Assembly (NCBI GenBank): GCA_963775685.1
Contig: CAVZJV010000014.1
Span: 512,001-576,000, forward strand
DNA length: 64,000 bases
Direction of reading: 5' to 3'
Source of the DNA: Candidatus Bathyarchaeota archaeon
GTDB lineage: Archaea > Thermoproteota > Bathyarchaeia > Bathyarchaeales > Bathycorpusculaceae
Shown: piece by piece, positions 47,705 to 61,028 of the stretch
Numbering within the stretch: the stretch's first letter is position 1
Layout: each line of letters begins with the position of its first letter
Position numbers and translations under genes: made by a program
The notes under the pieces: model-generated
The model's database searches: none
What the model was told of the DNA's origin: nothing
The model's input: the letters and a program-made list of their open reading frames with translations, nothing else

Positions 47705-48650
47705 ATGATAGACTTGAGCCGACTCGAAATAGGTGCAGGCAAAGCAGGCGCAAGGGAAAAATTCGAACGGCTCATCGCACGATTAATTAAGTTACAGTTT
47801 TACGATGCCCAAGAGGTTAAGCCGAACCCAGGCGATTGGGGTATCGACGTATACATCGGGAAATTTACCTCAGGAGATATTACTGTTTGGCAGGCAAAAT
47901 ACTTTCCAGATGGTGTAGATGATTGCCAAAAAGACCAAATTCGTAGATCTTTCAATCAAATAGTTGATAAGTCAAAAGAGAAAAGTTTCTGCGTTAATGC
48001 CTGGATTCTTTGTATCCCAAGTACTCTTGATGGAGACAGCAAAATTTGGTGGGAGAAATGGGCTAGCACAAAACAAAAGGAGACAGGGATATCTATTAGG
48101 TTGAAGGAACGACTTGAGATCGTTACTATGCTTCAAACACCTGAAGCTCACCCGCTTTGTATTGAATTCAATCTCGCAGACCGGACGGAACTTTTGATGG
48201 AAGAGAGAACAATTGAGCCTCTTCCATTGAAGGAAAGTTGCGAATATGATCATTCTTTCTTTATTTTAAAGCTGCTTGCTGCGGGAATAACAGAAACTGA
48301 ACCTGCAAAAAAGCAGTTTTTTAATGCAGAAATAGTCTCAAAAGAAATACTAGATAAAAAGGATAAATTTGAGCTTGCTGAATTGAACGGACTTTATGAT
48401 AAAATTCATGATTTATGGTCAACGAGATTTATTGAAGCAATGCAAAGTCAAAATGCTGAAGCAGAAACTAGACGAATTTATCCCAACCATGCTCAGACTC
48501 ATTGAGGAAAAGAATAATGAGTTATTATACTGCCATAGACTACCTATTTCTTTCTTCCATAAGAAGGGGCTAATGCAGCAAATGGCAGACATTTGTACCG
48601 TGGGATGGACCCCTGACTACAAAAGCTTGAGTAAGAAGGTGTCAATCTAA
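47705..48650 (+). CDS. ABC-three-component/Lamassu effector (LmuA-like): Mrr-like PD-(D/E)xK nuclease + C-terminal domain; 1-bp insertion at about 48483
   Basis: Motifs EKFERLI, GDWGIDVY, VWQAKYF. Removing one C from TATCCCA fuses both ORFs (314 aa). Confidence 0.8.
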
Positions 48651-49219
48651 TGCCGCAACATACGAATTCCGATTGGAAGAGTAGATTAACGTTTACTGCT
48701 GAGGATGACCTGGTGTTCAACTCTGCAAGGTTATTATTGCTTTTTGATGAACTTTCCAAATTGAGCAAACAGGGTGTCGATATTGAAAGGTTATCTTATT
48801 ATGATTTTTTTGCGGCTAACCCTTTTGTTATTCTTTCAGAAAATGACCCTTCACGTTTAGACTTTGAGTTAGAGGGGTTTGAGCCAAACAAATTAGAATA
48901 TACAAGTTCAGCGCAGAGATACAGTTCGAAACGAGAATCAATAAAGCACTATTTAGCGCTGCTACTTGCAAAAGGGCTCATAGACGTTTCTAATCAGGAA
49001 GGCAAAATAATTTTCGTTATAACCGAAAGAGGTTCTTCCACAGTCAACAAAATAAATACGATTTATGCAATAGCCTATAGGAAAAGCGTTGGCTATATTA
49101 TTAAACGCTTGAAGGATTATTCCGACAAAAAATTATGGGAATGTTCAAGAAAGTGGTTAGAGGCTAAAGCGTTCCAAATTGACCTTTATGGCACTATCGG
49201 AGAGAATTTGAATGAATAG
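48650..49219 (+). CDS. ABC-3C middle component (LmuC-like)
   Basis: ARLLLL...LSYYDFFAANPF...LLAKGLI...ITERG; overlaps both neighbours. Confidence 0.78.
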   Translation: MPQHTNSDWKSRLTFTAEDDLVFNSARLLLLFDELSKLSKQGVDIERLSYYDFFAANPFVILSENDPSRLDFELEGFEPNKLEYTSSAQRYSSKRESIKHYLALLLAKGLIDVSNQEGKIIFVITERGSSTVNKINTIYAIAYRKSVGYIIKRLKDYSDKKLWECSRKWLEAKAFQIDLYGTIGENLNE

Positions 49220-51134
49220 AATAATAATAAGCAAAATTACCGGCAAGAGTGTTGAAAAGGACTATTCTGTTCAATTCAAGCGCGGGTTAAACATAATTGC
49301 TGGTGAAAGTATGACCGGCAAAACATCAATTTTGCAACTTATTAATTATTGCTTCGGAGACTCTGAGTACCCACAAACGCTCGAATTCCAGAAACTGATT
49401 GTCGCATTGTTGGAAATAGAGATAGATGAAGAGTTTTTCACAATTGAGAGAGTCCTTTCAAGAAAAAAAACGGCAACGATACATTTCTGTAAGATAGAGG
49501 ATTTAAGAATCAGTCATAAGTCCATTGAAGTGAATGTTTCTATTTCGAATGATGAGGAATCGATCAGTAGTTTTATTCTTTCAAGGATTGGGCTAGAAGG
49601 AGTTGAACTAAAGAAGGCACCTACACAGGAAGCTTCTGAAACAAACACTCTGAGTTTTAGAGACCTATTATGGGCCTGTTACTTAAAGAGAAGTCGAGTT
49701 GGAGGAGAGCAACTGCTTTTTGAAAATGAATACTGGAAAAATAATAAGCTCATTCAAATTGTGGACATAATATTCAATGTTTATTCCAATACGGCAGCAT
49801 TGCTAAGTTCTGATTTAGAATCGCTCAATAATGAAATAGATGCAAACGAACAAAAAATGAAAACAATTCTAAATTTCCTTGATTCGCAAGGGGTACTTCA
49901 GCCTGAAGAGCTTGCGAAAGAATCTACTAAATTAGCATCTGACACGTCATCCCTTAAAAAACGCTTGACAACAATAGATGAGGCATTAACTGGTAGTTCA
50001 GATACAGCAAAGGGTCTCAGACACGAGGTATTAGGACTTCAAGCCGTCCTCCAAAGAATCAAGACTGATAAAAGAAGCATGGAAAAGAATCTTTTGCTAT
50101 TATTGCCGCTCAGGTCACAATATCATGAGGATATTAAGAAATTAACATTTCTAAACGAAGCCAAAGAAATCTTCGACCCTCTTCTAATTCTTCGCTGCCC
50201 TTATTGCCTAAGACCTTTAGAAAAAAACGCTGAAAACCATAACTGTTGTCCACTATGTAAAGAAGAAATAAATCAAATAAGTACTGAGTCGAAGGTCGAT
50301 GTGACTAAGGAAATAGGAATTATTAAGCGCAAATTAGACGAATTAAACGTTTACATTGAACAAGTAGAAATGAGGATCAAAGAGAATGAAGTTCATGAAA
50401 AGAGCACATCTGAACGATTGGCGTACCTCAGCAAACAGCTGGATGAATCCCTTGAAAGTTTTGTCAGCCCATATTTATCCGAGAGAGACGAATTAAAAAC
50501 CTCAATAATTACCAATGAAAACAAGATTGCAACTATTGACCAATCACTTAATTTCAGAAATCAAATAAAATTCATCGAAGAGGAAATAATCTGTCAAAAA
50601 ATAAAAGCAGAGAAGCTTAAATTAGAAATTAAGAAGGAAAGGACAAAGTCCGTAACGCGAATAGAGTTGATCAATTCTTTAAGCGCTTTGTATCGTCAAC
50701 AACTGAACGAGATACACTTCCCCAAGTTGGATAACGACGCCAGAATCGACGAAAAACTAATTCCTTATGTTAAAGGATTAAAATACGATAAGTTATCAAG
50801 CGAAGGTGCAATCAATCTCTCCTCAATTTGTTGGATGACAACGATTTTTGAGGAAGCGATAAAACGGTCAATGCATCATCCCGGTTTCCTAATGCTTGAT
50901 TACATACAAGCAGGAATTGGTATAGGTCCAGAAATAAAAGAGGAATTTCAAGATGTTGCTATTGTGAAGGGTCTTTATGATGTTCTTCTAGACGTTTCTC
51001 AATTAGATTCAGAATGTCAAGTAATTGCAATCGATAATCATCCACCCGATTATGCTAAAGACTATGTAATCGTTCGCTACACCAGAGACCCTAAGAAATA
51101 CCCTTACGGATTCATCGACGACGAGACAACTTAA
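49212..51134 (+). CDS. SMC/Rad50-like ABC ATPase (LmuB-like)
   Basis: Walker A GESMTGKT, coiled coils, CPYC/CPLC hook, signature SSEGA, Walker B FLMLD. Confidence 0.88.
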   Translation: MNRIIISKITGKSVEKDYSVQFKRGLNIIAGESMTGKTSILQLINYCFGDSEYPQTLEFQKLIVALLEIEIDEEFFTIERVLSRKKTATIHFCKIEDLRISHKSIEVNVSISNDEESISSFILSRIGLEGVELKKAPTQEASETNTLSFRDLLWACYLKRSRVGGEQLLFENEYWKNNKLIQIVDIIFNVYSNTAALLSSDLESLNNEIDANEQKMKTILNFLDSQGVLQPEELAKESTKLASDTSSLKKRLTTIDEALTGSSDTAKGLRHEVLGLQAVLQRIKTDKRSMEKNLLLLLPLRSQYHEDIKKLTFLNEAKEIFDPLLILRCPYCLRPLEKNAENHNCCPLCKEEINQISTESKVDVTKEIGIIKRKLDELNVYIEQVEMRIKENEVHEKSTSERLAYLSKQLDESLESFVSPYLSERDELKTSIITNENKIATIDQSLNFRNQIKFIEEEIICQKIKAEKLKLEIKKERTKSVTRIELINSLSALYRQQLNEIHFPKLDNDARIDEKLIPYVKGLKYDKLSSEGAINLSSICWMTTIFEEAIKRSMHHPGFLMLDYIQAGIGIGPEIKEEFQDVAIVKGLYDVLLDVSQLDSECQVIAIDNHPPDYAKDYVIVRYTRDPKKYPYGFIDDETT

Positions 51135-51333
51135 AAGAAAAGGGCACCCAGTTAAAACCAACAAATGATAGTCAAATTTTTTAAGATATATTTTTTTACA
51201 TTTGGCGATTTGTCACTTATTAGATAAGGAAGAATAATAAATACGACTTCGAAAGCAACAGTATCAACCGTTAATTTCTTAAACAAACCAGAGAGCATAT
51301 GACTATACTAACAAGAATAAGTCTGGTGAAATA

Positions 51334-53922
51334 GTGTCTGGAAAAAGTCCTTTTCGACGGATAGAAGTCAAGAGCTCGCAATCTTGCGACATCGAATCCT
51401 TATTTAAAGATCTAAAGAATAGATCCGCGGATATCAAGGAGTTATTTGCTCCACAAGCGGATGTTCTTAGAGATTATCAGAAGAACTATATCGATGCGAA
51501 AGATGTCAGTATTGAACTCCCAACTGGTTCAGGAAAAACACTTGTTGGTTTGCTTATTGCAGAATACCGCCGAAGAATCTTAAAAGAAAGAGTTCTTTAT
51601 CTTTGTCCAACCAAACAATTAGCATACCAAGTAGGTAATAAATCCGTAGAATACGATATTCCCGCGAAAGTTTTAGTTGGTTCAAAATACGAATTCAGCC
51701 GTCCTGACTCTATTGCTTATCATTCAGGAGCTACGACCGCAATATCGACTTATAGTGGTCTTTTCAACATTAATCCAGAATTTAATGACGCCCAAACTAT
51801 AATTCTTGATGACGCTCATGGTGGAGAAGGTTATATCTCCTCACCGTGGTCTATGACGGTTGATCGGGAAAAAGACCCTGAGGTATATGCACACCTAATT
51901 TCAACTTTTGAGAAAGACATGCCAACGCTATCTATCCTTTATGGTGAGAAACCCAAAAGGCTACCTAAGGTTGAAAAAATCCCTTACGCAATTTTTTTCA
52001 ATCATATTCCCGAACTTGTTGGAATCTTTAACACAGAACTAAGGGAAAATACTTCTAACTCTTACTCGTGGCAGTTTGTTAAAGAGGGACTGCATGCATG
52101 TCATGCATACATCTCATGGGACGAAATTTATTTACGCCCATATATCCCGCCTTCCCTTAGACATAGACCCTTCTCCGATGCAAAACAGCGTATCTACATG
52201 TCTGCCACATTAGGTAGCGGTGGAGAACTAGAACGAATAACTGGAGTAAACCAAATTAGTCGAGTTCAAACACCTAACACTTATCTCAGGCATGGGATTG
52301 GACGTAGACTCTTTCTATTTCCTGACATTGTAACCGAAGAATCCGAATATGAGTCATGGCTTGTCAAACTAATCGCCGCTTCCAAGAGAACATTAGTTCT
52401 TTGCCCGAATGGACGTGCGTTAACCAATCTAAAACAATTGCTGCAAAAAAGTGAAACATCTATACAAATACTTGGAGCATCTGACATAGAAAATTCCTTG
52501 GATCCCTTCATAAACTCAGAGTCAGTGGTTCTGGCACTAACAAATAGATATGATGGGATTGATATACCGAGTAAACTATGCAGGGTTCTAGTGATGTATG
52601 GCTTACCTACAGGTACAAATCTCCAGGAAGTGTTCCTAGAAGATAAGTTAGGATTGGATGTACTTCTCCGTGAAAGAGTGAAGACCAGAATTGCACAGGG
52701 CACAGGACGCTGCACAAGAAGCGCTACCGATCAATCTGCCGTAGTAATGGCTGGAAGACGCTTACTAGATTTTTGTATTAAGAATGAGAATCAAAGGATG
52801 TTTAACCATGAGTTACGGGGAGAAATGAACTATGTGCTTCAATTGAAGCTCACCTCTGTTGCTGACTTGGACTTGATGCTAAAATCATTCTTCCAAAAAG
52901 ATGAAGATTGGAATATGGCGGAAGAAGAGATAGCAAAGATTCGGGATTCTGATGAAAAACTTGATACAACAGTATCTGAAATTCTTGCTACAACAGTTGC
53001 AAGCGAAGTAAACTTCTCTTATGATTTCTGGTTCGGAAGATTTAAACAAGCCGTTGAAAGTGGTATTTCAATAACCGATAAACTTACCGATTCGCGACTT
53101 TCATCGTATCGTGCATTTTGGCATTACTTAACAGCCTGCGCTGCATTCGCTGCGTCTAAAGATAATCCCGACTTCATAGCCATTGCTGAAAAACAGATGA
53201 GTCGAGCAATAAAGACATGCAAAACTGTTTCATGGTTTGCAAGCGCTTTGAAGCCAATGTTACCAGTTGAAAAAGTTAGGGCAGTTGCAAACGAACTTGA
53301 AACGCTCGCTACCGAGGGAATAGCTGATGTTTTGAAAGATTTGGGATCCAGAGGTCCTGGGTTCCCAAGAAAGATGGAGGAAGTGGAGAAATTACTCGGG
53401 GAAAAGAAGCACTCAAGTTTCGATAGGGGTATGGTAGAGTTAGGACTTTTGCTTGGTTTTAACGCATGGAAAACTGATGCTCAAGCTACACCAGACTGTA
53501 TTTGGCAACTTGGCAATGAAATTGTGTATCTATTCGAAGGCAAATCAGAGGAAACCACAGAAGACCCCATTTCGGTTGATGATTGCAGACAAGCTGCTGG
53601 ACATTTAAAATGGGCAAGCGCTGATCCCCAACTCAAAAATTGCAAAGCTTTCAGAAGTATCCTCGTTACGCCGAGAACTACAATTGACAAGAATGCAGTG
53701 CCTCACGCTAACAATCTGTTTTTTATGACACCTTCAGATATGCAATCACTATTTGAGCGAGCAAAAGCTATGCTCACTGCAGTTAGAACCGTTATGATAG
53801 ATGAAGCGGATGAAGAATTTAAGGAAAAAATCATTTCCGAACTAATCAAAAACGACCTGACGCCGACTTCAATTCAAGCCATACTGCAAGCTAAGTCTGT
53901 TGATGATCTAAAGAAAATGTAA
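51334..53922 (+). CDS. SF2 (DinG-like) helicase with C-terminal PD-(D/E)xK nuclease-like domain
   Basis: Motifs PTGSGKT, DDAH, MSAT, YDGIDIP..CR, QGTGRCTR; C-terminal PDCIW...FEGKS. Confidence 0.88.
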   Translation: MSGKSPFRRIEVKSSQSCDIESLFKDLKNRSADIKELFAPQADVLRDYQKNYIDAKDVSIELPTGSGKTLVGLLIAEYRRRILKERVLYLCPTKQLAYQVGNKSVEYDIPAKVLVGSKYEFSRPDSIAYHSGATTAISTYSGLFNINPEFNDAQTIILDDAHGGEGYISSPWSMTVDREKDPEVYAHLISTFEKDMPTLSILYGEKPKRLPKVEKIPYAIFFNHIPELVGIFNTELRENTSNSYSWQFVKEGLHACHAYISWDEIYLRPYIPPSLRHRPFSDAKQRIYMSATLGSGGELERITGVNQISRVQTPNTYLRHGIGRRLFLFPDIVTEESEYESWLVKLIAASKRTLVLCPNGRALTNLKQLLQKSETSIQILGASDIENSLDPFINSESVVLALTNRYDGIDIPSKLCRVLVMYGLPTGTNLQEVFLEDKLGLDVLLRERVKTRIAQGTGRCTRSATDQSAVVMAGRRLLDFCIKNENQRMFNHELRGEMNYVLQLKLTSVADLDLMLKSFFQKDEDWNMAEEEIAKIRDSDEKLDTTVSEILATTVASEVNFSYDFWFGRFKQAVESGISITDKLTDSRLSSYRAFWHYLTACAAFAASKDNPDFIAIAEKQMSRAIKTCKTVSWFASALKPMLPVEKVRAVANELETLATEGIADVLKDLGSRGPGFPRKMEEVEKLLGEKKHSSFDRGMVELGLLLGFNAWKTDAQATPDCIWQLGNEIVYLFEGKSEETTEDPISVDDCRQAAGHLKWASADPQLKNCKAFRSILVTPRTTIDKNAVPHANNLFFMTPSDMQSLFERAKAMLTAVRTVMIDEADEEFKEKIISELIKNDLTPTSIQAILQAKSVDDLKKM

Positions 53923-54400
53923 TTTCTTTTCCATTCCGCTTCTAACCGGAAGATACAATCTAACGATTCCTATTTGATCTCTAAATATCGATCTTATCGT
54001 TAGTAAGTTTGTAGTTGGAGAGAGCAAGAGTATGAACATAGTTGTTTTCCAATATTGAAGCAAAATCTCAAATGGTCATTTTTCCACTGATCGGAAGAAC
54101 AACATCACGCTAAAATTTCAGTTGTTGTTCTTTTGTTAGTGCAAGATTACGTTGGAAGAAGAAAAAATCGGATTTAACCCAATGCAATTTTTTCTTCTCC
54201 TGAAAGAAGACAGAAACGTGTGCAGATTGTTGCCTTCTTCTTTTTATCACTTAAACGGGCAAGATGTTGTTTGAAAGAAGAAGAACGGGCTTTTCTGTAG
54301 CAATTAGCCGTTTTTCTTCTTCTAATACTCGTAATATTGGAGCTCCATTTCGATCCAGCAACAACTTCTGCTATTATCAGGCATTCGAACAATTTTGCTC

Positions 54401-55345
54401 TTAAGGTTGACCACTGAAGAGGTTGACCATTTTATTTGAGGGAACTACTTCTTGAAGAATGACCGAGGCGACGTGAGAGAAAAATCTGCGTAGAACTTCG
54501 TTTTGACTATCTTCTTTTGCCTTTGGGATGTGGTCTGACATTAAGAATTTGTAGGCAAAGTTTTCCGCGAATGCTTGCCTCCAAGAATCATCCCTGGTAG
54601 AAGATTTGCTATCAATAATCAATTCACTTAGTCCCTTTTGGGTTTCTTTGAGTTGTTGGCTTAGAATGAAAAGTTGATTGTAATTATTTGCATCGCCACT
54701 TCTCTGCTCCATGCTTCTTTGGGTCTCATCCTCTTGGTCAGATTGAGCAGTCCATTTCAACTGACTTACTTTTTCCGTTACATCTTCTATTTTTTTCCCA
54801 ACGAACGCTAGCTCTGTTGAGGTATGAGGGGGGACAGCCTCTAAAACCTGGGCAGAATGTAATATATCGTATAAGACTGAATGCCCAAAATGATTGACGA
54901 GCCAGGGTATTTCTTCGAAAAGGGGATAATCTAGCCTTTTTCCCCAGTCTTCTAAGACGTGCGTGAGCTTCTCAAATTCGTCTAAATGCTCAACTATGAA
55001 TTGTTCTTGAAACTGCTCTCGGGCCTTGCGTATGTCTTCAAGTGATCGATTTTTAAACAGTTTTAGGGCTTCTATGCCGTTTAGGGGATTAAGATGAATC
55101 GTGTTAAGGTATAATATTGCACCCCGGAAGGTTAGGTGGAACAGTTTCTTTTTTCGCGGGTTTTCGTTTGAGTCATTGAAGGGAGTTAGGTAGCCTTCTT
55201 GGTGGAGTTTGTTGAGGCAGAAGTGGATTGTTCCGCGGCTTATTTTCTCTAGTTGTTTTTGCTTGTAGAGATCATATTCAGTTTGTGGACCTTGTTGCGC
55301 AATAAGGGCTAGTATAGAGTGGGTTTTTGGGTTTTTCTTTAGCAA
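54401..55345 (-). CDS. N-terminal wHTH protein (element regulator)
   Basis: ILALIAQQGPQTEYDL...LNKLHQEGYL...KLFHLTFRG. Confidence 0.7.
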   Translation of the reverse strand: MLKKNPKTHSILALIAQQGPQTEYDLYKQKQLEKISRGTIHFCLNKLHQEGYLTPFNDSNENPRKKKLFHLTFRGAILYLNTIHLNPLNGIEALKLFKNRSLEDIRKAREQFQEQFIVEHLDEFEKLTHVLEDWGKRLDYPLFEEIPWLVNHFGHSVLYDILHSAQVLEAVPPHTSTELAFVGKKIEDVTEKVSQLKWTAQSDQEDETQRSMEQRSGDANNYNQLFILSQQLKETQKGLSELIIDSKSSTRDDSWRQAFAENFAYKFLMSDHIPKAKEDSQNEVLRRFFSHVASVILQEVVPSNKMVNLFSGQP

Positions 55346-55439
55346 TATCTCAGTGACCTATGTGATATCTAAAAGATACTTCCTTAAATAATTTTCTCGC
55401 ACTATTATCACAGTAAGCACTGAGATGTGAAGAAGTGAA

Positions 55440-55715
55440 ATGAGCATACCCAAAATCGTGGAACACAAAATAATAAAAATGCGAAAACGCGACGGCACAA
55501 CACAATACACACTAACGCTTCCCAAAGAGTTCGCCGAAGCCTTAACACAAGAAGGAATCGATTCTCTATACATTGTTTTCAACAGAGGACTCGGAGCTTT
55601 CCCAAAGATTCCAGGCTTCACCGAAAAAGCATTAACCACATTTCTGCAGGAACACCAAGCACTCCAAAAACTCTTCACCAAAACTACTGAAACCGATTTA
55701 ATTATTCAGAAATAA
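55440..55715 (+). CDS. AbrB-like small DNA-binding protein
   Basis: QYTLTLPKEFAEAL. Confidence 0.65.
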   Translation: MSIPKIVEHKIIKMRKRDGTTQYTLTLPKEFAEALTQEGIDSLYIVFNRGLGAFPKIPGFTEKALTTFLQEHQALQKLFTKTTETDLIIQK

Positions 55716-55733
55716 GAAGGAAAGAAAAGAGAA

Positions 55734-56183
55734 ATGGCTGGACTAACCGAGGAAACTCAGGATATATTTGGCAAGGCCGATAGCAAATCCTGCCTAAATG
55801 AAAACACTAGCCTAGACCCATTACAGCCACTGATTTTTGTTCGCTACCGCGACCATGTCCTGTACAATCGTGCCTCTGCTGTTTTGATGCAACCACAGAT
55901 TAGAGAAGCTGTAGGCTGGCTAATCTACGAAGCCGATCAATACATTATTCTTTCCTGGGATAGGGATGCAGACCCACCAACACTTCATGGTGGCGACCCG
56001 AAAGCCTCAGGTCTTGTTCTCCTAAAGTCAGACATTGTTCGATCGATTAAGTTCTATCCGCATCTTCTTCCAAATCTAGAATTGAATTTAAAAAGTAAAC
56101 AATCCATACATGCAGATGAGTCTGCGTTCCGACGACCATCGGAGCGAAAAACTCACTCCTCAAAAGGAGAAAAAACAAAATGA
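55734..56183 (+). CDS. Integrase-associated conserved protein (copy 1)
   Basis: VRYRDHVLY...REAVGWL...GLVLLKSDIV; homologous to 59142-59582; ATGA overlap with the integrase. Confidence 0.8.
   Translation: MAGLTEETQDIFGKADSKSCLNENTSLDPLQPLIFVRYRDHVLYNRASAVLMQPQIREAVGWLIYEADQYIILSWDRDADPPTLHGGDPKASGLVLLKSDIVRSIKFYPHLLPNLELNLKSKQSIHADESAFRRPSERKTHSSKGEKTK
56087..56179 (+). promoter_or_regulatory. Internal TATA box and structured leader of integrase 1
   Basis: TTTAAAAA at 56087; hairpin GAGT-CTG-CGTTCCGA-N6-TCGGAGCG-AAAA-ACTC; CTCCT/AGGAG hairpin over the SD. Confidence 0.6.
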
Positions 56184-57607
56184 TCGAAAAGACCCTTTTA
56201 GCCCCCGCTATAACCCGCAACCATCAACTTTCCCTTGAAGAAATAAAAAGCCTCAACCTCCCCATGACATTCCAAGGCGACCAAGTTGTAATCTACACAA
56301 GCTTAACCGGCTGGAAACTCAAAAAACCCGTAACCATAGAACTCAAAAACATCTTAGATGCTAAAGAAAAAGGCCTCGTCGACTACATCATCAGATCCTG
56401 CCTAAACGACCGCCCCGGCGTAATTGCTTTTTTATTCGAGAACCAAAGCATGCTAAAACTCGCTCGCCACTTTCTACGCCATCTCTCAGGCTCCTACAGA
56501 AGCTGCTTAACCTACTCCGTCAACGTCAAACGATACGCGACTTGGCTAGGCTATACGCCTGACTTAATTATCCAAGACGTCAAACCTGTCGGCGCAATCC
56601 CAGACCCCATAAAAGTACAGAACCACTGTGGATTCCTAAACGACTACCTCGCCGAACTACAAGACGACGACCTCAAACCAGCAGCAGTAAACAACTACAT
56701 CAAAGCTGTCAAAACCTTCTACCACGTAAACGGAATCGACGTCAAACTCACAGAACGCCTATCCCGAAAAGTCGCCTACAAAGACCGAGCCCCAAAACCC
56801 GAAGAAATCACAACCATGCTCGATAAATCAGCTACTCGCGAAGCCTTTATCATTGCAGCCTTAGCAACAGGTGGATTCCGAGAAGGAACATTTTGTAAAC
56901 TAAAATACCGACACGTAAAAGAAGACCTCGAAGCTAACAGAATTCCCATACACATACACGTAGAAGCCGAAATCACCAAAGGAAAATACCACGACTACGA
57001 CACCTTCATCAACACTGAAGCAAGCAACCTGCTGAAAATGTACATCGCCGACAGAAGACGAGGCATCAGATATACTCCGCCAGAAGAAATCACCGACGAC
57101 TCACCTTTAGTTCGAAGTGATCACCAAGCACACAAAGTGGTCGGTATCAGCGAAAAAACGCTGCGAAAAATCGTGCACACAATCGCTGTTGAAGCTGGCG
57201 TCTCAAAGAAACTGCCTGACAGCTGGATGTACAGTGTAAGAACCCATAGCCTGCGAAAATACTTTAGAACCCAGATGAGTGCCTCAAAAATCGATAGCGA
57301 AATCATCAAATATTTCATGGGCAAAACCATCGACACTTATGAAGACGTCCAAAGCCTAGGTATTGAAACCCTAAGAAATCTCTACACATCTGCAGGATTA
57401 GCGATTAGACCGAAAACTCAGACCAATAGAATTGAGCAGTTTAAAGAAATCTTACGCGCCATGGGAGAGAACCCTGAAGAAGTCTTATCTAAGGATGCTT
57501 TGATGCGGGGAAATATAACTGAGCTCCCAGAAATATACCAGAATCATCAGTTATCGATTCTGGCTCAGCAGCTTAAGCAGCTGATTATGAGGGAGGTCAG
57601 GGTTTAG
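56180..57607 (+). CDS. Tyrosine recombinase/integrase 1
   Basis: Motifs GFREGT, HSLRKYFR, FMGK..DTY; SAM-like N-terminal domain. Confidence 0.93.
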   Translation: MIEKTLLAPAITRNHQLSLEEIKSLNLPMTFQGDQVVIYTSLTGWKLKKPVTIELKNILDAKEKGLVDYIIRSCLNDRPGVIAFLFENQSMLKLARHFLRHLSGSYRSCLTYSVNVKRYATWLGYTPDLIIQDVKPVGAIPDPIKVQNHCGFLNDYLAELQDDDLKPAAVNNYIKAVKTFYHVNGIDVKLTERLSRKVAYKDRAPKPEEITTMLDKSATREAFIIAALATGGFREGTFCKLKYRHVKEDLEANRIPIHIHVEAEITKGKYHDYDTFINTEASNLLKMYIADRRRGIRYTPPEEITDDSPLVRSDHQAHKVVGISEKTLRKIVHTIAVEAGVSKKLPDSWMYSVRTHSLRKYFRTQMSASKIDSEIIKYFMGKTIDTYEDVQSLGIETLRNLYTSAGLAIRPKTQTNRIEQFKEILRAMGENPEEVLSKDALMRGNITELPEIYQNHQLSILAQQLKQLIMREVRV

Positions 57608-57702
57608 TGAACGAAAAAACTGGTAGTTTTTTCGCGTTAATATTGGCGCCGCCGAAAGGTTCCGCGGCTTATAAGCTGAACTTATACTAGACTTTTGCGA
57701 AG
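57608..57702. other. Putative recombination/attachment region with a dif-like core TATAA-GCTGAAC-TTATA
   Basis: Inverted repeats at 57612-57634, 57634-57649, 57648-57668 and 57670-57686. Confidence 0.5.
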
Positions 57703-59145
57703 TCACCGTTGATTTGTGACCTCCCTACGTATGATATTCTTAAGTTCCTCGGCTAAGATCGAGAGTTGGTGCGTCTGATTCTGCTCAGAATTAACGGTTA
57801 TGTTTCCTCTGATAAAGGCGTCTTTGCTTAAGATTTCCTCGGGGTTCTCTCCCCAAGCGCGAATTATTTCTTTGAGTTGGTCTATGCGGTTAAGTTTCGT
57901 CTTAGGTCGGATTGCTAAGTTCGCTGCTGCGTACATGTTTCTGAGTGCGTCTATTCCGAGGCTTTGAACGTCTGCGTAGGTGCTAATGGTGTGCCCCATC
58001 ATATACTCGACGATTTCTGATTCGATTTTTGCTGCAAGTAACTGAGATTTGAAGAACTTTCTTAGGCTGTGGGTTCTTACGGTGTACATCCAACTATCTG
58101 CTAGCTTTTTTGCTGTGCCTGTTTCGACAGCTACTTTGTGAACGATTGCTCGTAGCTGTTTTTCGCTTATGGGTTCAACTCTGTTAGCGTAATGAGTGCT
58201 TCTTATGAGCGGTGCGTCGTCGGTGATTACTTCAGGGGGAGTGTATTTTGAGCCGTGGCGTCTTTCTTGGATGTAGAGTTTTAAGAGTTGGCAGGCTTCG
58301 TTGTTTAGGAAAGTGTCGTAGTCGTGGTATTTTCCTTTGGTAATTTCGGTTTCTATATGGACATGAATTGGGACCACGCCTGCTTCTAGGTCTTCTTTGA
58401 CGTGTCGATATTTGAGTTTGCTTAAGGTTCCTTCTCTGAAGGCTGCGATTGCAAAGGCTGCTATGATGAAGCTTTCTCTTGTGTCGGACTTATCTAGCAT
58501 CGCTGCGATTTCTTCGGGTTTTGGCGCTCGGTCTTTATTCTCAACTTTTCTGCTAAGCGGTTGGTCTAACTTGACTGTTTTTGCTCCGTTAACGCGATAA
58601 AAGCTTCTTACGGCTTTCATGCAGTTGCTTATTGCACCGGCTGAAAGTCCTGCATCTTGAAGGTCAGCTAAGTAGTCGTTGATAAAAGCGCAGTGGTTTT
58701 GCACTCGTTGCGGATCGGGGATTGCTCCAACTGGCTTTAGGTCGACGATGATTTCGTCGGGTTTGTATCCGAGCCAAGTTGCGTATTTTTTGACGCCGGC
58801 TGAGTAGTTTCGGCAGCTTGAGAAGGACTTTGAGCAGTTGCGTAGAAAGTGGCGCGCTAGTTTAAGGAGAGTTTTGTTTGCAAAAATATAAGGGATCAGT
58901 GCGGGTTGCTCTCTTATGCAGCCTCTAATAACGTAGTCTACGAGTCCTTTTTCGCCTGCTTCTAAGACGAGGTTTAATTCGATAGCTATGGGTGTTTTGA
59001 GTTTCCAGCCGTTGAGGCTTTTTTCGATTATAACGAGGTTTCCTTGAAACATCAGCGGAAGTCCGAGGCTTTTTAGATCTTCGATGGTTAAATCACGGTT
59101 TCGAGTTATAGCTGGGGCTAACTGTCTAGTCTTATGTTCAATCAA
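57703..59145 (-). CDS. Tyrosine recombinase/integrase 2
   Basis: Motifs AFREGT, HSLRKFFK, MMGH..STY; end-to-end homologue of integrase 1. Confidence 0.93.
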   Translation of the reverse strand: MIEHKTRQLAPAITRNRDLTIEDLKSLGLPLMFQGNLVIIEKSLNGWKLKTPIAIELNLVLEAGEKGLVDYVIRGCIREQPALIPYIFANKTLLKLARHFLRNCSKSFSSCRNYSAGVKKYATWLGYKPDEIIVDLKPVGAIPDPQRVQNHCAFINDYLADLQDAGLSAGAISNCMKAVRSFYRVNGAKTVKLDQPLSRKVENKDRAPKPEEIAAMLDKSDTRESFIIAAFAIAAFREGTLSKLKYRHVKEDLEAGVVPIHVHIETEITKGKYHDYDTFLNNEACQLLKLYIQERRHGSKYTPPEVITDDAPLIRSTHYANRVEPISEKQLRAIVHKVAVETGTAKKLADSWMYTVRTHSLRKFFKSQLLAAKIESEIVEYMMGHTISTYADVQSLGIDALRNMYAAANLAIRPKTKLNRIDQLKEIIRAWGENPEEILSKDAFIRGNITVNSEQNQTHQLSILAEELKNIIRREVTNQR

Positions 59146-59582
59146 TGTTTTTTCGCTCCTTTCTGGATTTTGGAGCTGAGTTTTTCGCTTCTTTGGCTAG
59201 GAGCGCATACTCGATTCTTTAGTAAAGTGGATGGACAATTTAAAACATGCTCAAAATTTAGAAGCGCCATGGAAACAATGCAGCTTTTAATAACCACCAC
59301 GCCGTTAAAACCGCTACGGCACTCTGGAAGAGGCCTATCACACTCGATAAGCATAACATCATCGTTCTCTTCCTTAACCCAGCCTATTGCTTCCCGTATG
59401 ATTGCTTCAGCAGCAGGTGTCTCAACGTTTCTAAAAAACACATGGTCTCTGTACCTAACGTAAACAGCTTTGAGGATTTGGGAGCTATCGCCAGCTGATT
59501 CGCCAAAACATACACCGTTCAGGCTAACTTCATTGGTGCTCTTCATTGAACCTGTAGCGAGATCAGCCATTTCCTCCCACAC
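59142..59582 (-). CDS. Integrase-associated conserved protein (copy 2)
   Basis: VRYRDHVFF...REAIGWV...GVVVIKSCIV. Confidence 0.8.
   Translation of the reverse strand: MWEEMADLATGSMKSTNEVSLNGVCFGESAGDSSQILKAVYVRYRDHVFFRNVETPAAEAIIREAIGWVKEENDDVMLIECDRPLPECRSGFNGVVVIKSCIVSMALLNFEHVLNCPSTLLKNRVCAPSQRSEKLSSKIQKGAKKH
59146..59245 (-). promoter_or_regulatory. Internal TATA box and structured leader of integrase 2
   Basis: TTTTAAAT at 59245-59238; hairpin GAGT-ATG-CGCTCCT-N6-AGAAGCG-AAAA-ACTC; GCTCC/GGAGC pairing over the SD. Confidence 0.6.
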
Positions 59583-59602
59583 CTCTTAATTTTATGGTTA
59601 GT

Positions 59603-59842
59603 TTACTTGTTTGGTTCTGGAATCTTTTCGAAGTTGACAAGTTCCCAGGGAATGTGTGCCACCAGTCCGCATCCGACATAGCGATAGAAACTTTCTGGAT
59701 CAACAAGGCTGGTGTTGCCTGTTTGCATTAAGCGGGGCTTTTGCATTTTTATGTGACATGCGCACGCTTCGCCTAGGCAATCGCTGTTTTCCTGTTGAGG
59801 GTGCGATGCAGCTAAGGGACAAACCTTACGAGGCTCCATCAT
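59603..59842 (-). CDS. Small Cys-rich (putative Zn-binding) protein
   Basis: KVCPL...CLGEACAC...GCGL. Confidence 0.65.
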   Translation of the reverse strand: MMEPRKVCPLAASHPQQENSDCLGEACACHIKMQKPRLMQTGNTSLVDPESFYRYVGCGLVAHIPWELVNFEKIPEPNK

Positions 59843-60051
59843 GGTCTCTCCTTCGCTAATGCTGTTTCCTCAGCCGTATCAAAGGTCACGGCTGGAAATG
59901 GCGCCTTGGGTCGTTTATGGGTTGCCTTGTATGCTTTGAGTCCTTGTTTGAGGATTTCATTTGCGAATGCGCTTCGGGTTGCTAGGTCCCTGTAGGCGTC
60001 TATTTCTTTTAGGACCGCTTGATCGATGGTGAAGGCGACTTTTGCTTTCAT
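59839..60051 (-). CDS. Ribbon-helix-helix protein
   Basis: KVAFTIDQAVLKEID...RSAFANEIL. Confidence 0.8.
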   Translation of the reverse strand: MKAKVAFTIDQAVLKEIDAYRDLATRSAFANEILKQGLKAYKATHKRPKAPFPAVTFDTAEETALAKERP

Positions 60052-60071
60052 TTCTCTTAATTCCCCTCGTG

Positions 60072-60112
60072 GTTAACTTAGTTAACTCCGTTACTATGGG
60101 TAACCTTATAAA
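60072..60112. promoter_or_regulatory. Repeated GTTAAC/GTTAC/GTAAC boxes next to TATA between divergent RHH genes
   Basis: Four boxes at 9-10 bp spacing. Confidence 0.5.
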
Positions 60113-60156
60113 TCTAATCCTACTAATCATACTTCTGTTCACAGGAGAAAAACGGC

Positions 60157-60576
60157 ATGAAAGCGATAAAAATCTCAGACGACATCCACAGCAAACTAAC
60201 CGGTCTACTAGGCGAGCTCACCGCTGAGACTAATAAAATGCAAACTTACCAGGACGCCATAAACGCTCTCCTAGAGCAGTCAGTTATTCTTCCGCCTGAA
60301 GTCATTGCCAAAGTGGAAAACTTCATTGAAGAAAACAAAGATACAGGCTTCACCAACAAAGAGGACTTTGTCCGTGATGCTATACGCTACAGGCTTGAAC
60401 GATTGAAAACCGACAATGAATGCATTGAAGTTTCTCGCGAACAATATAACGAACTCGACGAAGCCCTAAAGGAAATGGGAACACCCTTCCACAGTCCAGA
60501 GCAATTCATACACAGCCAAATATCCGATATCATCTACAAATACGATGAATACAAGAAAAACAAGCAATATCCTTAA
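60157..60576 (+). CDS. Multi-RHH/CopG-like regulator
   Basis: KAIKISDDIHSKL...TYQDAI; VILPPEV...GFTNKEDFVRDAIR. Confidence 0.8.
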   Translation: MKAIKISDDIHSKLTGLLGELTAETNKMQTYQDAINALLEQSVILPPEVIAKVENFIEENKDTGFTNKEDFVRDAIRYRLERLKTDNECIEVSREQYNELDEALKEMGTPFHSPEQFIHSQISDIIYKYDEYKKNKQYP

Positions 60577-60639
60577 TCAAACCACTAGCAGACAAGCCTT
60601 ACAAGAATTGTTTCTAAGGATGAGACAAAGAAGTTGAGG

Positions 60640-60891
60640 TTGATAATTCAGGGTGTCAAAAGCTACATTCACATAAAGGAGGATTATCTGTTGCCGATGC
60701 GGCGGTTAGAATCAGAGACGCTCTCAGAATGGAAACACCTAGCCGTATCATGGAAAATACAAATAAGCAGAGCCCAAACTCCATAGGACAAAGTCAAATG
60801 CGAAAACCTGCTAAGCAGTACCCAAGAGCACATCAAACAATTCATCGAAGCCGGCGTCAAAGAGGTTAAAGAACTCAAGGAATTCGATTGA
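60640..60891 (+). pseudogene. Small helical hypothetical ORF interrupted by one in-frame TAG (60784)
   Basis: Manual translation LIIQGVKS...RAQTP*DKVKC...KEFD. Confidence 0.4.
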
Positions 60892-61028
60892 ATTTGTCTA
60901 TGTTAAAAAAGAAATAGGCACTTTATTTAGATTGAATCGTTAGCTGATGAGGCTGAGCGGCAGATAAAAAAAATGCTTCACAATGATTAATTAATCGAAG
61001 CAATAAACCTTAAGCTACAATGTTGGTA

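Follow-up and report, generated by a model that had tools for sequence, protein, structure and literature searches.

The two integrase modules

The 64,000-nucleotide (nt) stretch of DNA analysed here, referred to as the window, comes from the 3.06-Mb genome of a Candidatus Bathyarchaeota archaeon (assembly GCA_963775685.1, contig CAVZJV010000014.1, positions 512,001 to 576,000). It carries int1 and int2, two convergent tyrosine recombinase (integrase) genes that lie tail to tail, each preceded by a small open reading frame (ORF), up1 or up2. Embedded in the 3' end of each small ORF is a hairpin, here called hairpin 1, and it is this element, its conservation among archaeal integrase loci and its likely function that are considered below. 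The features of the locus, including those pairing the Shine-Dalgarno sequences (SD) and the remnant of the transfer RNA (tRNA) gene that serves as the attachment site (att), are as follows (window coordinates; aa, amino acids; bp, base pairs).

55734..56183, plus strand: up1, upstream ORF, 149 aa, with a small predicted beta-barrel core and a tail predicted to be disordered; its 3' end holds the TATA-like box and both hairpins, and it has an ATGA overlap with int1
56087..56093, plus strand: TATA-like box, copy 1 (TTTAAAA), beginning 31 nt 5' of hairpin 1
56118..56154, plus strand: hairpin 1, copy 1; outer stem GAGT/ACTC, internal loop CTG/AAAA, 8-bp inner stem, 6-nt loop; 53.6 bits
56156..56169, plus strand: hairpin 2, copy 1 (CTCCT-CAAA-AGGAG), pairing the int1 SD
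56180..57607, plus strand: int1, tyrosine recombinase, 475 aa, PF00589
57610..57637, no strand assigned: A-run/T-run palindrome right after the int1 stop, resembling a bidirectional terminator (putative function)
57645..57659, minus strand: tRNA-Asn 3'-end fragment (att core remnant), between the convergent int1 and int2
57703..59145, minus strand: int2, tyrosine recombinase, 480 aa, PF00589
59155..59176, minus strand: hairpin 2, copy 2 (GCTCC ... GGAGC), pairing the int2 SD
59178..59212, minus strand: hairpin 1, copy 2; outer stem GAGT/ACTC, loop ATG/AAAA, inner stem with one C.A mismatch; 59.2 bits
59238..59244, minus strand: TATA-like box, copy 2 (TTTAAAT), beginning 32 nt 5' of hairpin 1
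59142..59582, minus strand: up2, upstream ORF, 146 aa, a paralogue of up1, with a 4-nt overlap between its stop and the start of int2

Both integrases match PF00589 (34.0 and 37.8 bits for int1 and int2, respectively, the gathering cut-off being 27.1), and they are 66% identical to each other. At both ends of the locus the stop codon of the small ORF and the start codon of the integrase gene overlap by 4 nt. The products of up1 and up2 are 33% identical over only 96 residues, their C-terminal tails being left unaligned by BLAST, and it is within the DNA encoding these unaligned tails that the hairpin motif sits.

A preliminary description of this DNA had proposed that a conserved RNA leader is hidden upstream of both integrases, and the positions and sequences it gave for the two copies are correct. 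Expressed as a gapped pattern, the motif matches twice in the window, with no match expected (100 shuffles). Copy 1, folded as first drawn, has a free energy of -14.8 kcal/mol (z -3.5), and copy 2, folded alike, of -8.0 kcal/mol (z -2.5). The outer stem and the NTG/AAAA internal loop are indeed the same in both, but the inner stem, described as fully paired, is not so in copy 2, where CGCTCCT/AGAAGCG forms six of seven pairs and leaves a C.A mismatch. Likewise, a TTTAAA box does stand ahead of each copy, with 25-26 nt between box and motif rather than the 23-25 nt proposed. The two copies are translated in different frames of their host ORFs (ESAFRRPSERKT versus RVCAPSQRSEKL), as had been noted.

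Conservation and distribution of the hairpin

Scans with integrase alignments produced 99 related loci (18 from genomes, one viral, and 80 of 319 from metagenomes), nine of which have no upstream sequence, leaving 90 usable. A covariance model built from 57 distinct motif copies finds the hairpin in 59 of the 99, or 59 of the 90 with upstream sequence, at E <= 4.5e-8, each match being a single copy on the integrase strand, and the distance from the 3' end of the motif to the integrase start codon is 22-54 nt. The same model, scanned over the 527,658 bases of the related loci, detected no second copy. Hairpin 1 is part of the minimum-energy fold in all 54 leaders folded.

Both stems of hairpin 1 covary, with many independent changes. 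Standard pairs make up 93% of the pair cells, versus 27-49% in a control with the 3' partners slid, and none of 500 shuffles reached the observed covariation score. One example is pair 21-44, which is UA in 32 sequences, CG in 22, UG in 4 and something else in 7. Another example is pair 19-46, which is CG in 43, UG in 20 and UA in 2. On a tree of the integrases (n = 50) these pairs changed state at least 16 and at least 11 times, respectively, so that the signal cannot be assigned to one old split, the tree being a quick, unrooted maximum-likelihood one, on which recombination could add state changes. The unpaired G before the inner stem, the C-G and G-C closing pairs and the five A's show little or no variation among 65 sequences. 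G.U cells on the sense strand number 31, versus seven A.C cells, which would be G.U on the opposite strand. Covariation among homologues, which the preliminary description had named as the check on its proposal, is thus seen in both stems, in the covariance-model alignment as well as on the tree.

The coding context of the motif varies from locus to locus. In the 53 loci whose upstream ORF could be resolved, the motif's 5' half is read in phase 0, 1 or 2 in 40, 10 and 3 cases, respectively, and the run of five A's is read as CGA-AAA-ACT, GAA-AAA-CTC or GCG-AAA-AAC in 33, 12 and 8 cases. Since the motif is read in three frames, the constraint must act on the nucleotides and not on the peptide, and a shared peptide, the explanation that was to have undone the original claim, is contradicted by the same observation. 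The information profile has its maximum at the motif, the flanking coding sequence being far less conserved, and the protein tail encoded by the motif region is predicted to be disordered. The central proposal of a conserved, structured element under nucleotide-level selection within the upstream gene is thus well supported by the three frames and by the covarying stems.

The window modules themselves are paralogous, with integrases 66% identical, and the likeness of their two hairpins could in principle be a residue of that duplication or of a peptide shared by the up-int modules. We give almost no credence to this explanation: besides the three frames and the many independent changes in the stems, the motif is far better conserved than its flanks, the upstream proteins are only 33% identical with their tails unaligned, and the motif is found beside integrases without detectable similarity to int1. 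The recurrence of the motif in 59 related loci, in spite of the divergence of the upstream proteins, points to more than chance or paralogy.

The remaining 31 of the 90 loci, which have upstream sequence and do not have the motif, mostly belong to remoter integrases (43-55% identity); most of them have other upstream regions, and several show an ordinary intergenic TTTATATA promoter. In five distant relatives (L060, L070, L075, L076 and L087) the upstream protein is retained and the motif is replaced by another short hairpin, TTCGG-CAAAA-CCGAG. Exact motif matches in five IMG/VR contigs of 21-36 kb (L133-L137) lie mostly close to the ends of the predicted viral contigs, which fits the position of an integrase at the end of a provirus. 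A tblastn search with int1 against GenBank phage records gave no match.

The motif is not limited to one type of integrase. Covariance-model matches occur in 9 of the 151 sampled genomes of the class and in 11 of 151 of the phylum. The weaker matches possess very different stems, for example CGCCCC/GGGGCG, CGTCTGG/CCAGGCG or CGCCAC/GTGGCG, and an outer stem lengthened to GCCGAGT/ACTCGGC, with the unpaired ATG...AAAA unchanged. Tyrosine recombinase genes lie beside or around the weaker matches in all five loci of one set (L109 being weak, below the Pfam cut-off), and PF00589 was recognized in 8 of 10 further open frames around such matches; the other two had no match, one of them (L126) being truncated at a contig end, and four more open frames at weaker matches are not part of this count. 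Most of these integrases have a zinc-ribbon N-terminus, and the hairpin lies within one long ORF, in the section that joins the ribbon to the catalytic part. RNAalifold, run on 13 loci of the zinc-ribbon type with no structure supplied, returned the same hairpin, with 5 of 15 pairs compensatory. The motif is linked to tyrosine integrases of at least two unrelated architectures across the phylum. As it is present alongside zinc-ribbon modules too, it goes with the integrase rather than with the upstream protein.

Several further observations concern these weaker matches. In the zinc-ribbon integrases of L116-L131 a second covarying hairpin comes directly after the motif, at a distance of about 50-70 nt (for example, CAGGGC/GCCCTG, CCAGCCC/GGGCTGG or GGGACC/GGTCCC), succeeded by a conserved AGAT peptide, with an in-frame ATG-GAG there in some loci. 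The genome of the window itself has two weak copies of the hairpin, at C14:891995-892041 (minus strand) and C14:2157259-2157301 (plus strand), each beside another small integrase-like gene; they score 27 and 25 bits with model R1 and 46 and 36 bits with model R2, and have covarying outer stems (AAGT/ACTT and CAAAT/ATTTG). A search with the zinc-ribbon integrase of L131 returned only distant bacterial integrases and one archaeal enrichment clone, and no cultured system with mapped transcription start sites.

Programmed -1 frameshifting relies on a slippery run in a fixed frame and on a stimulatory structure downstream of it. The hairpin and its A run might be thought to promote such an event, fusing the upstream protein to the integrase, as the int gene is in the -1 frame relative to the upstream ORF at the ATGA overlaps, the int frame is open back into the motif at many loci, and the zinc-ribbon type represents a natural fusion of an N-terminal module with an integrase. 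This is very improbable, however: the A run occurs in three frames (33, 12 and 8 loci), so no fixed slippery codon context exists, the conserved hairpin is upstream and not downstream of the A run, and conservation of the motif is just as strong in loci that have a single uninterrupted ORF.

Attachment sites and a possible DNA function

In the related loci, a convergent tRNA gene or a tRNA 3'-end fragment is found directly 3' of the integrase stop. The targets of the motif-bearing elements include tRNA-Asn, -Lys, -Arg, -Pro, -Phe and -Leu, as well as RNase P RNA, and the hairpin is alike throughout. In one locus with a zinc-ribbon-type integrase (L120), it is an archaeal RNase P RNA gene (2522-2827) and not a tRNA gene that directly follows, and this may be the integration target. 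In the window, the 15 nt at 57645-57659 correspond to the 3' end of tRNA-Asn. The repeat of this 3' end spans 15-16 nt, and the full tRNA-Asn gene is located 35 kb away on the same strand (C14 about 604854-604930, outside the window); for this reason int2 appears to stand at one end of an integrated element of roughly 35 kb, and int1 appears to belong to a second element inserted alongside. The 3.4-kb block 54272-57659, which comprises a minus-strand PadR-like gene, a 91-aa ORF, up1 and int1, is 95% identical to a locus in another genome (L007), the identity stops exactly at the tRNA-Asn fragment, and the flanks differ. A stretch at 60358-60555 matches L007 beyond the other side of this block, in the opposite orientation. 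For the int1 element, no further att copy that would mark its other end was detected. A similar tail-to-tail arrangement of integrases is seen in L041. An 18-nt sequence, AACTTATACTAGAYTTT, is present at 57675-57692 and again directly after the tRNA-Asn gene (C14:604854), that is on both sides of the att core, inverted, and it may be an integrase-binding repeat flanking the attP of the int2 element. The preliminary description had missed both the nature of the att sites, which are the tRNA 3' ends after the integrases, and the extension of the motif to other integrase families.

These observations bear on whether the hairpin could act as DNA, either as a folded single strand or as an imperfect palindrome, serving as an operator for autoregulation, an accessory recombination site or a site of replication or transfer. 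The strict linkage to tyrosine recombinase genes speaks for such a role, as does the resemblance to the attC sites of integrons, which share with it an imperfect hairpin, covarying stems, conserved unpaired bases and the tyrosine-recombinase connection, and which, according to PMC5737381, were once reported, mistakenly, as an RNA motif. An archaeal XerA is moreover reported in PMC8371274 to bind stem-looped att sites. On the other side, the att sites of these elements are found elsewhere, as tRNA 3' ends after the integrase stop, and, unlike attC, the hairpin is present as one copy per integrase, 5' of the gene, with no cassette array in the bases scanned and no partner copy within 3 kb. It is alike in elements with different tRNA or RNase P RNA targets, its half-sites vary freely in sequence and yet still pair, a property for which a double-stranded operator would have no use, and its G.U cells favour the sense strand over the antisense equivalent. 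A DNA function seems unlikely on balance. The hairpin as an att site is out, since these elements have their att core in the tRNA 3' end that follows the integrase gene, and the hairpin stays alike whatever the target; a tRNA-like att site was rejected by inspection.

The bridge RNA of IS110 elements pairs through its loops with target and donor DNA. A comparable guide, with the loop of the hairpin specifying the integration target, would have in common with bridge RNA a structured, non-coding element directly at the 5' side of a recombinase gene, and the terminal loop of the hairpin is variable. The enzyme here is a tyrosine recombinase, though, and the loop does not track the target: L043 and L038, located at tRNA-Asn and tRNA-Lys, respectively, have one common loop, whereas L007, L026 and L043, all at tRNA-Asn, have different ones, and no complementarity between loop and att core was seen by eye. 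We see next to no prospect for a guide function.

A candidate leader of the integrase transcript

In 49 of 54 loci a TTAAA-type box begins at -30 to -34, counted from the first G of the hairpin; an A/T-rich stretch is located at about -12 to -3. In archaeal promoters, the TATA box is positioned about 26-27 nt before the transcription start, and thus the box and its spacing would fit a TATA box starting transcription at the base of the hairpin. The box encodes Leu-Asn, with the Leu codon being TTA in 43 of 43 rows and the Asn codon AAT in 37 of 37. TTA makes up 156 of the 623 Leu codons across the upstream ORFs (25%); elsewhere, conserved Leu columns draw on five or six codons. The synonymous sites of the box are thus frozen, as fits a promoter element. 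The geometry in the preliminary description, of a conserved TATA-like box placed for a transcript that starts at the hairpin base, is borne out in this respect, by the position of the box and by the codon freeze.

Less general is the pairing of the SD. The second hairpin was described as covering it, and this does apply to both window copies, whose minimum-energy folds contain CTCCT/AGGAG and GCTCC/GGAGC. In our own reading of the folds, a second hairpin directly 3' of hairpin 1 is found in about 33 of the 54 leaders; the SD is paired in 19 of 54, including both window copies, and unpaired in 35. The alternative pairing described for copy 2, CGCUCCU/AGGAGCG, is indeed a perfect 7-bp helix, but the fold containing it (-11.5 kcal/mol) lies 5.6 kcal/mol above the two-hairpin fold (-17.1 kcal/mol), it is missing in the nearest relatives (L038-L040), where the SD region differs, and no comparable alternative exists in copy 1 within 7 kcal/mol. 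Because the alternative is disfavoured and absent from these relatives, and with SD pairing in only 19 leaders, the idea of a riboswitch-like switch finds no support.

As to the nature of the transcript, we consider function at the level of RNA, in whatever form, to be probable. One form of it would have the hairpin reside within a bicistronic up-int messenger RNA (mRNA), with no internal promoter, as a site of processing or stability at which the two cistrons are separated, or as a device for translational coupling, by which int would be translated only once ribosomes have completed the upstream ORF. In 51 of 53 loci the upstream ORF spans the entire motif. Its stop and the start of int overlap, in most cases by 4 nt, and the 19 leaders with a paired SD would fit coupling. 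However, this leaves unexplained the frozen TTAAAT box at its fixed distance and the presence of the same hairpin inside single long integrase ORFs that have no stop/start junction, and most leaders show no SD occlusion. We therefore find it an unlikely reading, and a tentative one.

The explanation we prefer, with a probability of about 0.5, is that a transcript specific to the integrase carries the element at its 5' end as a cis-acting structured RNA, whose role is probably to control the amount of integrase in mobile elements of Bathyarchaeia and related archaea. A promoter inside the upstream gene, composed of the TTTAAAT box and the A/T-rich stretch, would place the transcription start at the hairpin base or no more than a few nt from it, so that the integrase mRNA would begin with a hairpin of 34-45 nt, made up of the outer stem, an asymmetric internal loop (5' NNG, 3' AAAA) and the covarying inner stem. 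The invariant unpaired bases would be the likely contact of a trans-acting factor, encoded either by the host or by the integrase gene, and this factor would set the stability or the translation of the integrase mRNA and, through it, integration and excision of the mobile element. In the window copies and in part of the family, where the second hairpin pairs the SD, this hairpin would in addition have to open before int is translated, unless ribosomes came in from the overlapping upstream ORF (ATGA). RNA on the sense strand is favoured by the G.U excess (31 versus 7), the promoter geometry, the single copy, and the freely varying stems combined with conserved loops.

A number of points weigh against this explanation. 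The TATA-like hexamer doubles as a Leu-Asn codon pair, and kinship among the sequences means that the codon and G.U counts overstate the support. The motif is absent from 31 of the 90 loci, hence it is dispensable for some members of the int1/int2 integrase family, and the second hairpin with its SD occlusion is clade-specific. Where the hairpin lies inside the single ORF of a zinc-ribbon integrase, one must further assume that an internal start yields a protein truncated at its N-terminus. The transcription start, the action at the RNA level and the trans-acting factor are postulated. Finally, as PMC5737381 also points out, motifs of folded single-stranded DNA and of RNA are not reliably separable from sequence.

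The upstream protein belongs to an unannotated family. It has no Pfam, PHROG or PDB sequence match, and its protein-atlas neighbours are only hypothetical clusters, from Bathyarchaeota and tailed viruses. The structural model (mean predicted local distance difference test score, pLDDT, 65, with 75-91 over most of the core) is a small five-stranded barrel, nearest to Sm/LSm/Hfq chains, for which the best Z is 7.0, a value below 8 being one that may reflect no more than a common arrangement. Sm/LSm/Hfq rows dominate the top 50 structural matches, with Foldseek E-values all above 0.06. A possible Sm-like fold is a lead for RNA binding, nothing more.

Known regulatory hairpins offer partial parallels. 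In phage lambda, int is subject to retroregulation by the sib hairpin, located 3' of int on the far side of attP and dependent on RNase III of the bacterial host. As would be the case here, a cis RNA hairpin there sets integrase expression of an integrating element post-transcriptionally, but the present hairpin is 5' of int, in archaea, and its factor is postulated only. The operator of the MS2 replicase represents leader hairpins that sequester the SD and act with translational coupling. The SD-pairing hairpin at the stop/start overlap in both window copies and in 17 other leaders is similar, whereas hairpin 1, the conserved core, stays clear of the SD, and SD pairing is missing in 35 of 54 leaders. 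Kink-turns, the sites of L7Ae, have tandem sheared G.A pairs beside a 3-nt bulge, and bulge-helix-bulge motifs have two 3-nt bulges on opposite strands, 4 bp apart; both were dismissed on inspection of the alignments, which place NNG opposite AAAA in a single internal loop and show no GA/AG tandem. The hammerhead core and the C/D and H/ACA small RNAs were also rejected by inspection, and a leaderless start at the loop ATG is out, as this triplet varies (CTG, TCG, GTG and others). Among archaeal systems, the SNJ2-type operon joins the integrase and small accessory ORFs in one transcript, and lysogeny is proposed to be under the control of two alternative transcription starts (PMC8371274). That system involves another integrase family, in a haloarchaeal virus, and a conserved hairpin is not described in the portions of PMC8371274 seen.

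The structured motif is apparently undescribed. No model of Rfam 15 (4227 models) matched window positions 54000-61000 at E <= 1, and in eight related loci only tRNA, RNase P RNA and chance matches away from the motif were recorded, in agreement with the initial claim of novelty. A description of the hairpin was not found in the passages of the literature searched, those of PMC8371274 and PMC5737381 included, although supplements could hold motif lists. It was probably missed before because motif searches look at intergenic regions, while this motif lies within ORFs.

Very few cis-regulatory RNA structures are known in archaea, and the control of integrases in archaeal mobile elements is largely obscure. 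The review PMC8371274, in the parts available, lists only few cases of transcriptional control. Short and sharply defined, the motif provides a concrete, mutable target for tests of the control of integrases in proviruses and integrated elements of Bathyarchaeia, and a sequence marker for the integrase end of such elements. A bolder version, improbable and offered as speculation, would be that of a new and widespread archaeal class of integrase-associated structured RNA, embedded in coding sequence and equipped with a promoter of its own. A conserved factor, possibly the integrase, would bind the invariant G/A5 internal loop, and mobile elements of Thermoproteota would thereby share a post-transcriptional switch of integration and excision; at its boldest, this version would make the RNA a cofactor of the recombinase.

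Two observations on the surroundings may be added. The palindrome at 57610-57637 is likely a bidirectional terminator between integrase and tRNA, and palindromes like it follow many of the related integrase genes. Further upstream, window positions 47705-53922 hold a set of genes resembling a defence island, encoding an Mrr-like/CTD8 protein, the ABC-3C middle component MC2, an SMC-like ATPase and a DEAD/Helicase_C_2 helicase.

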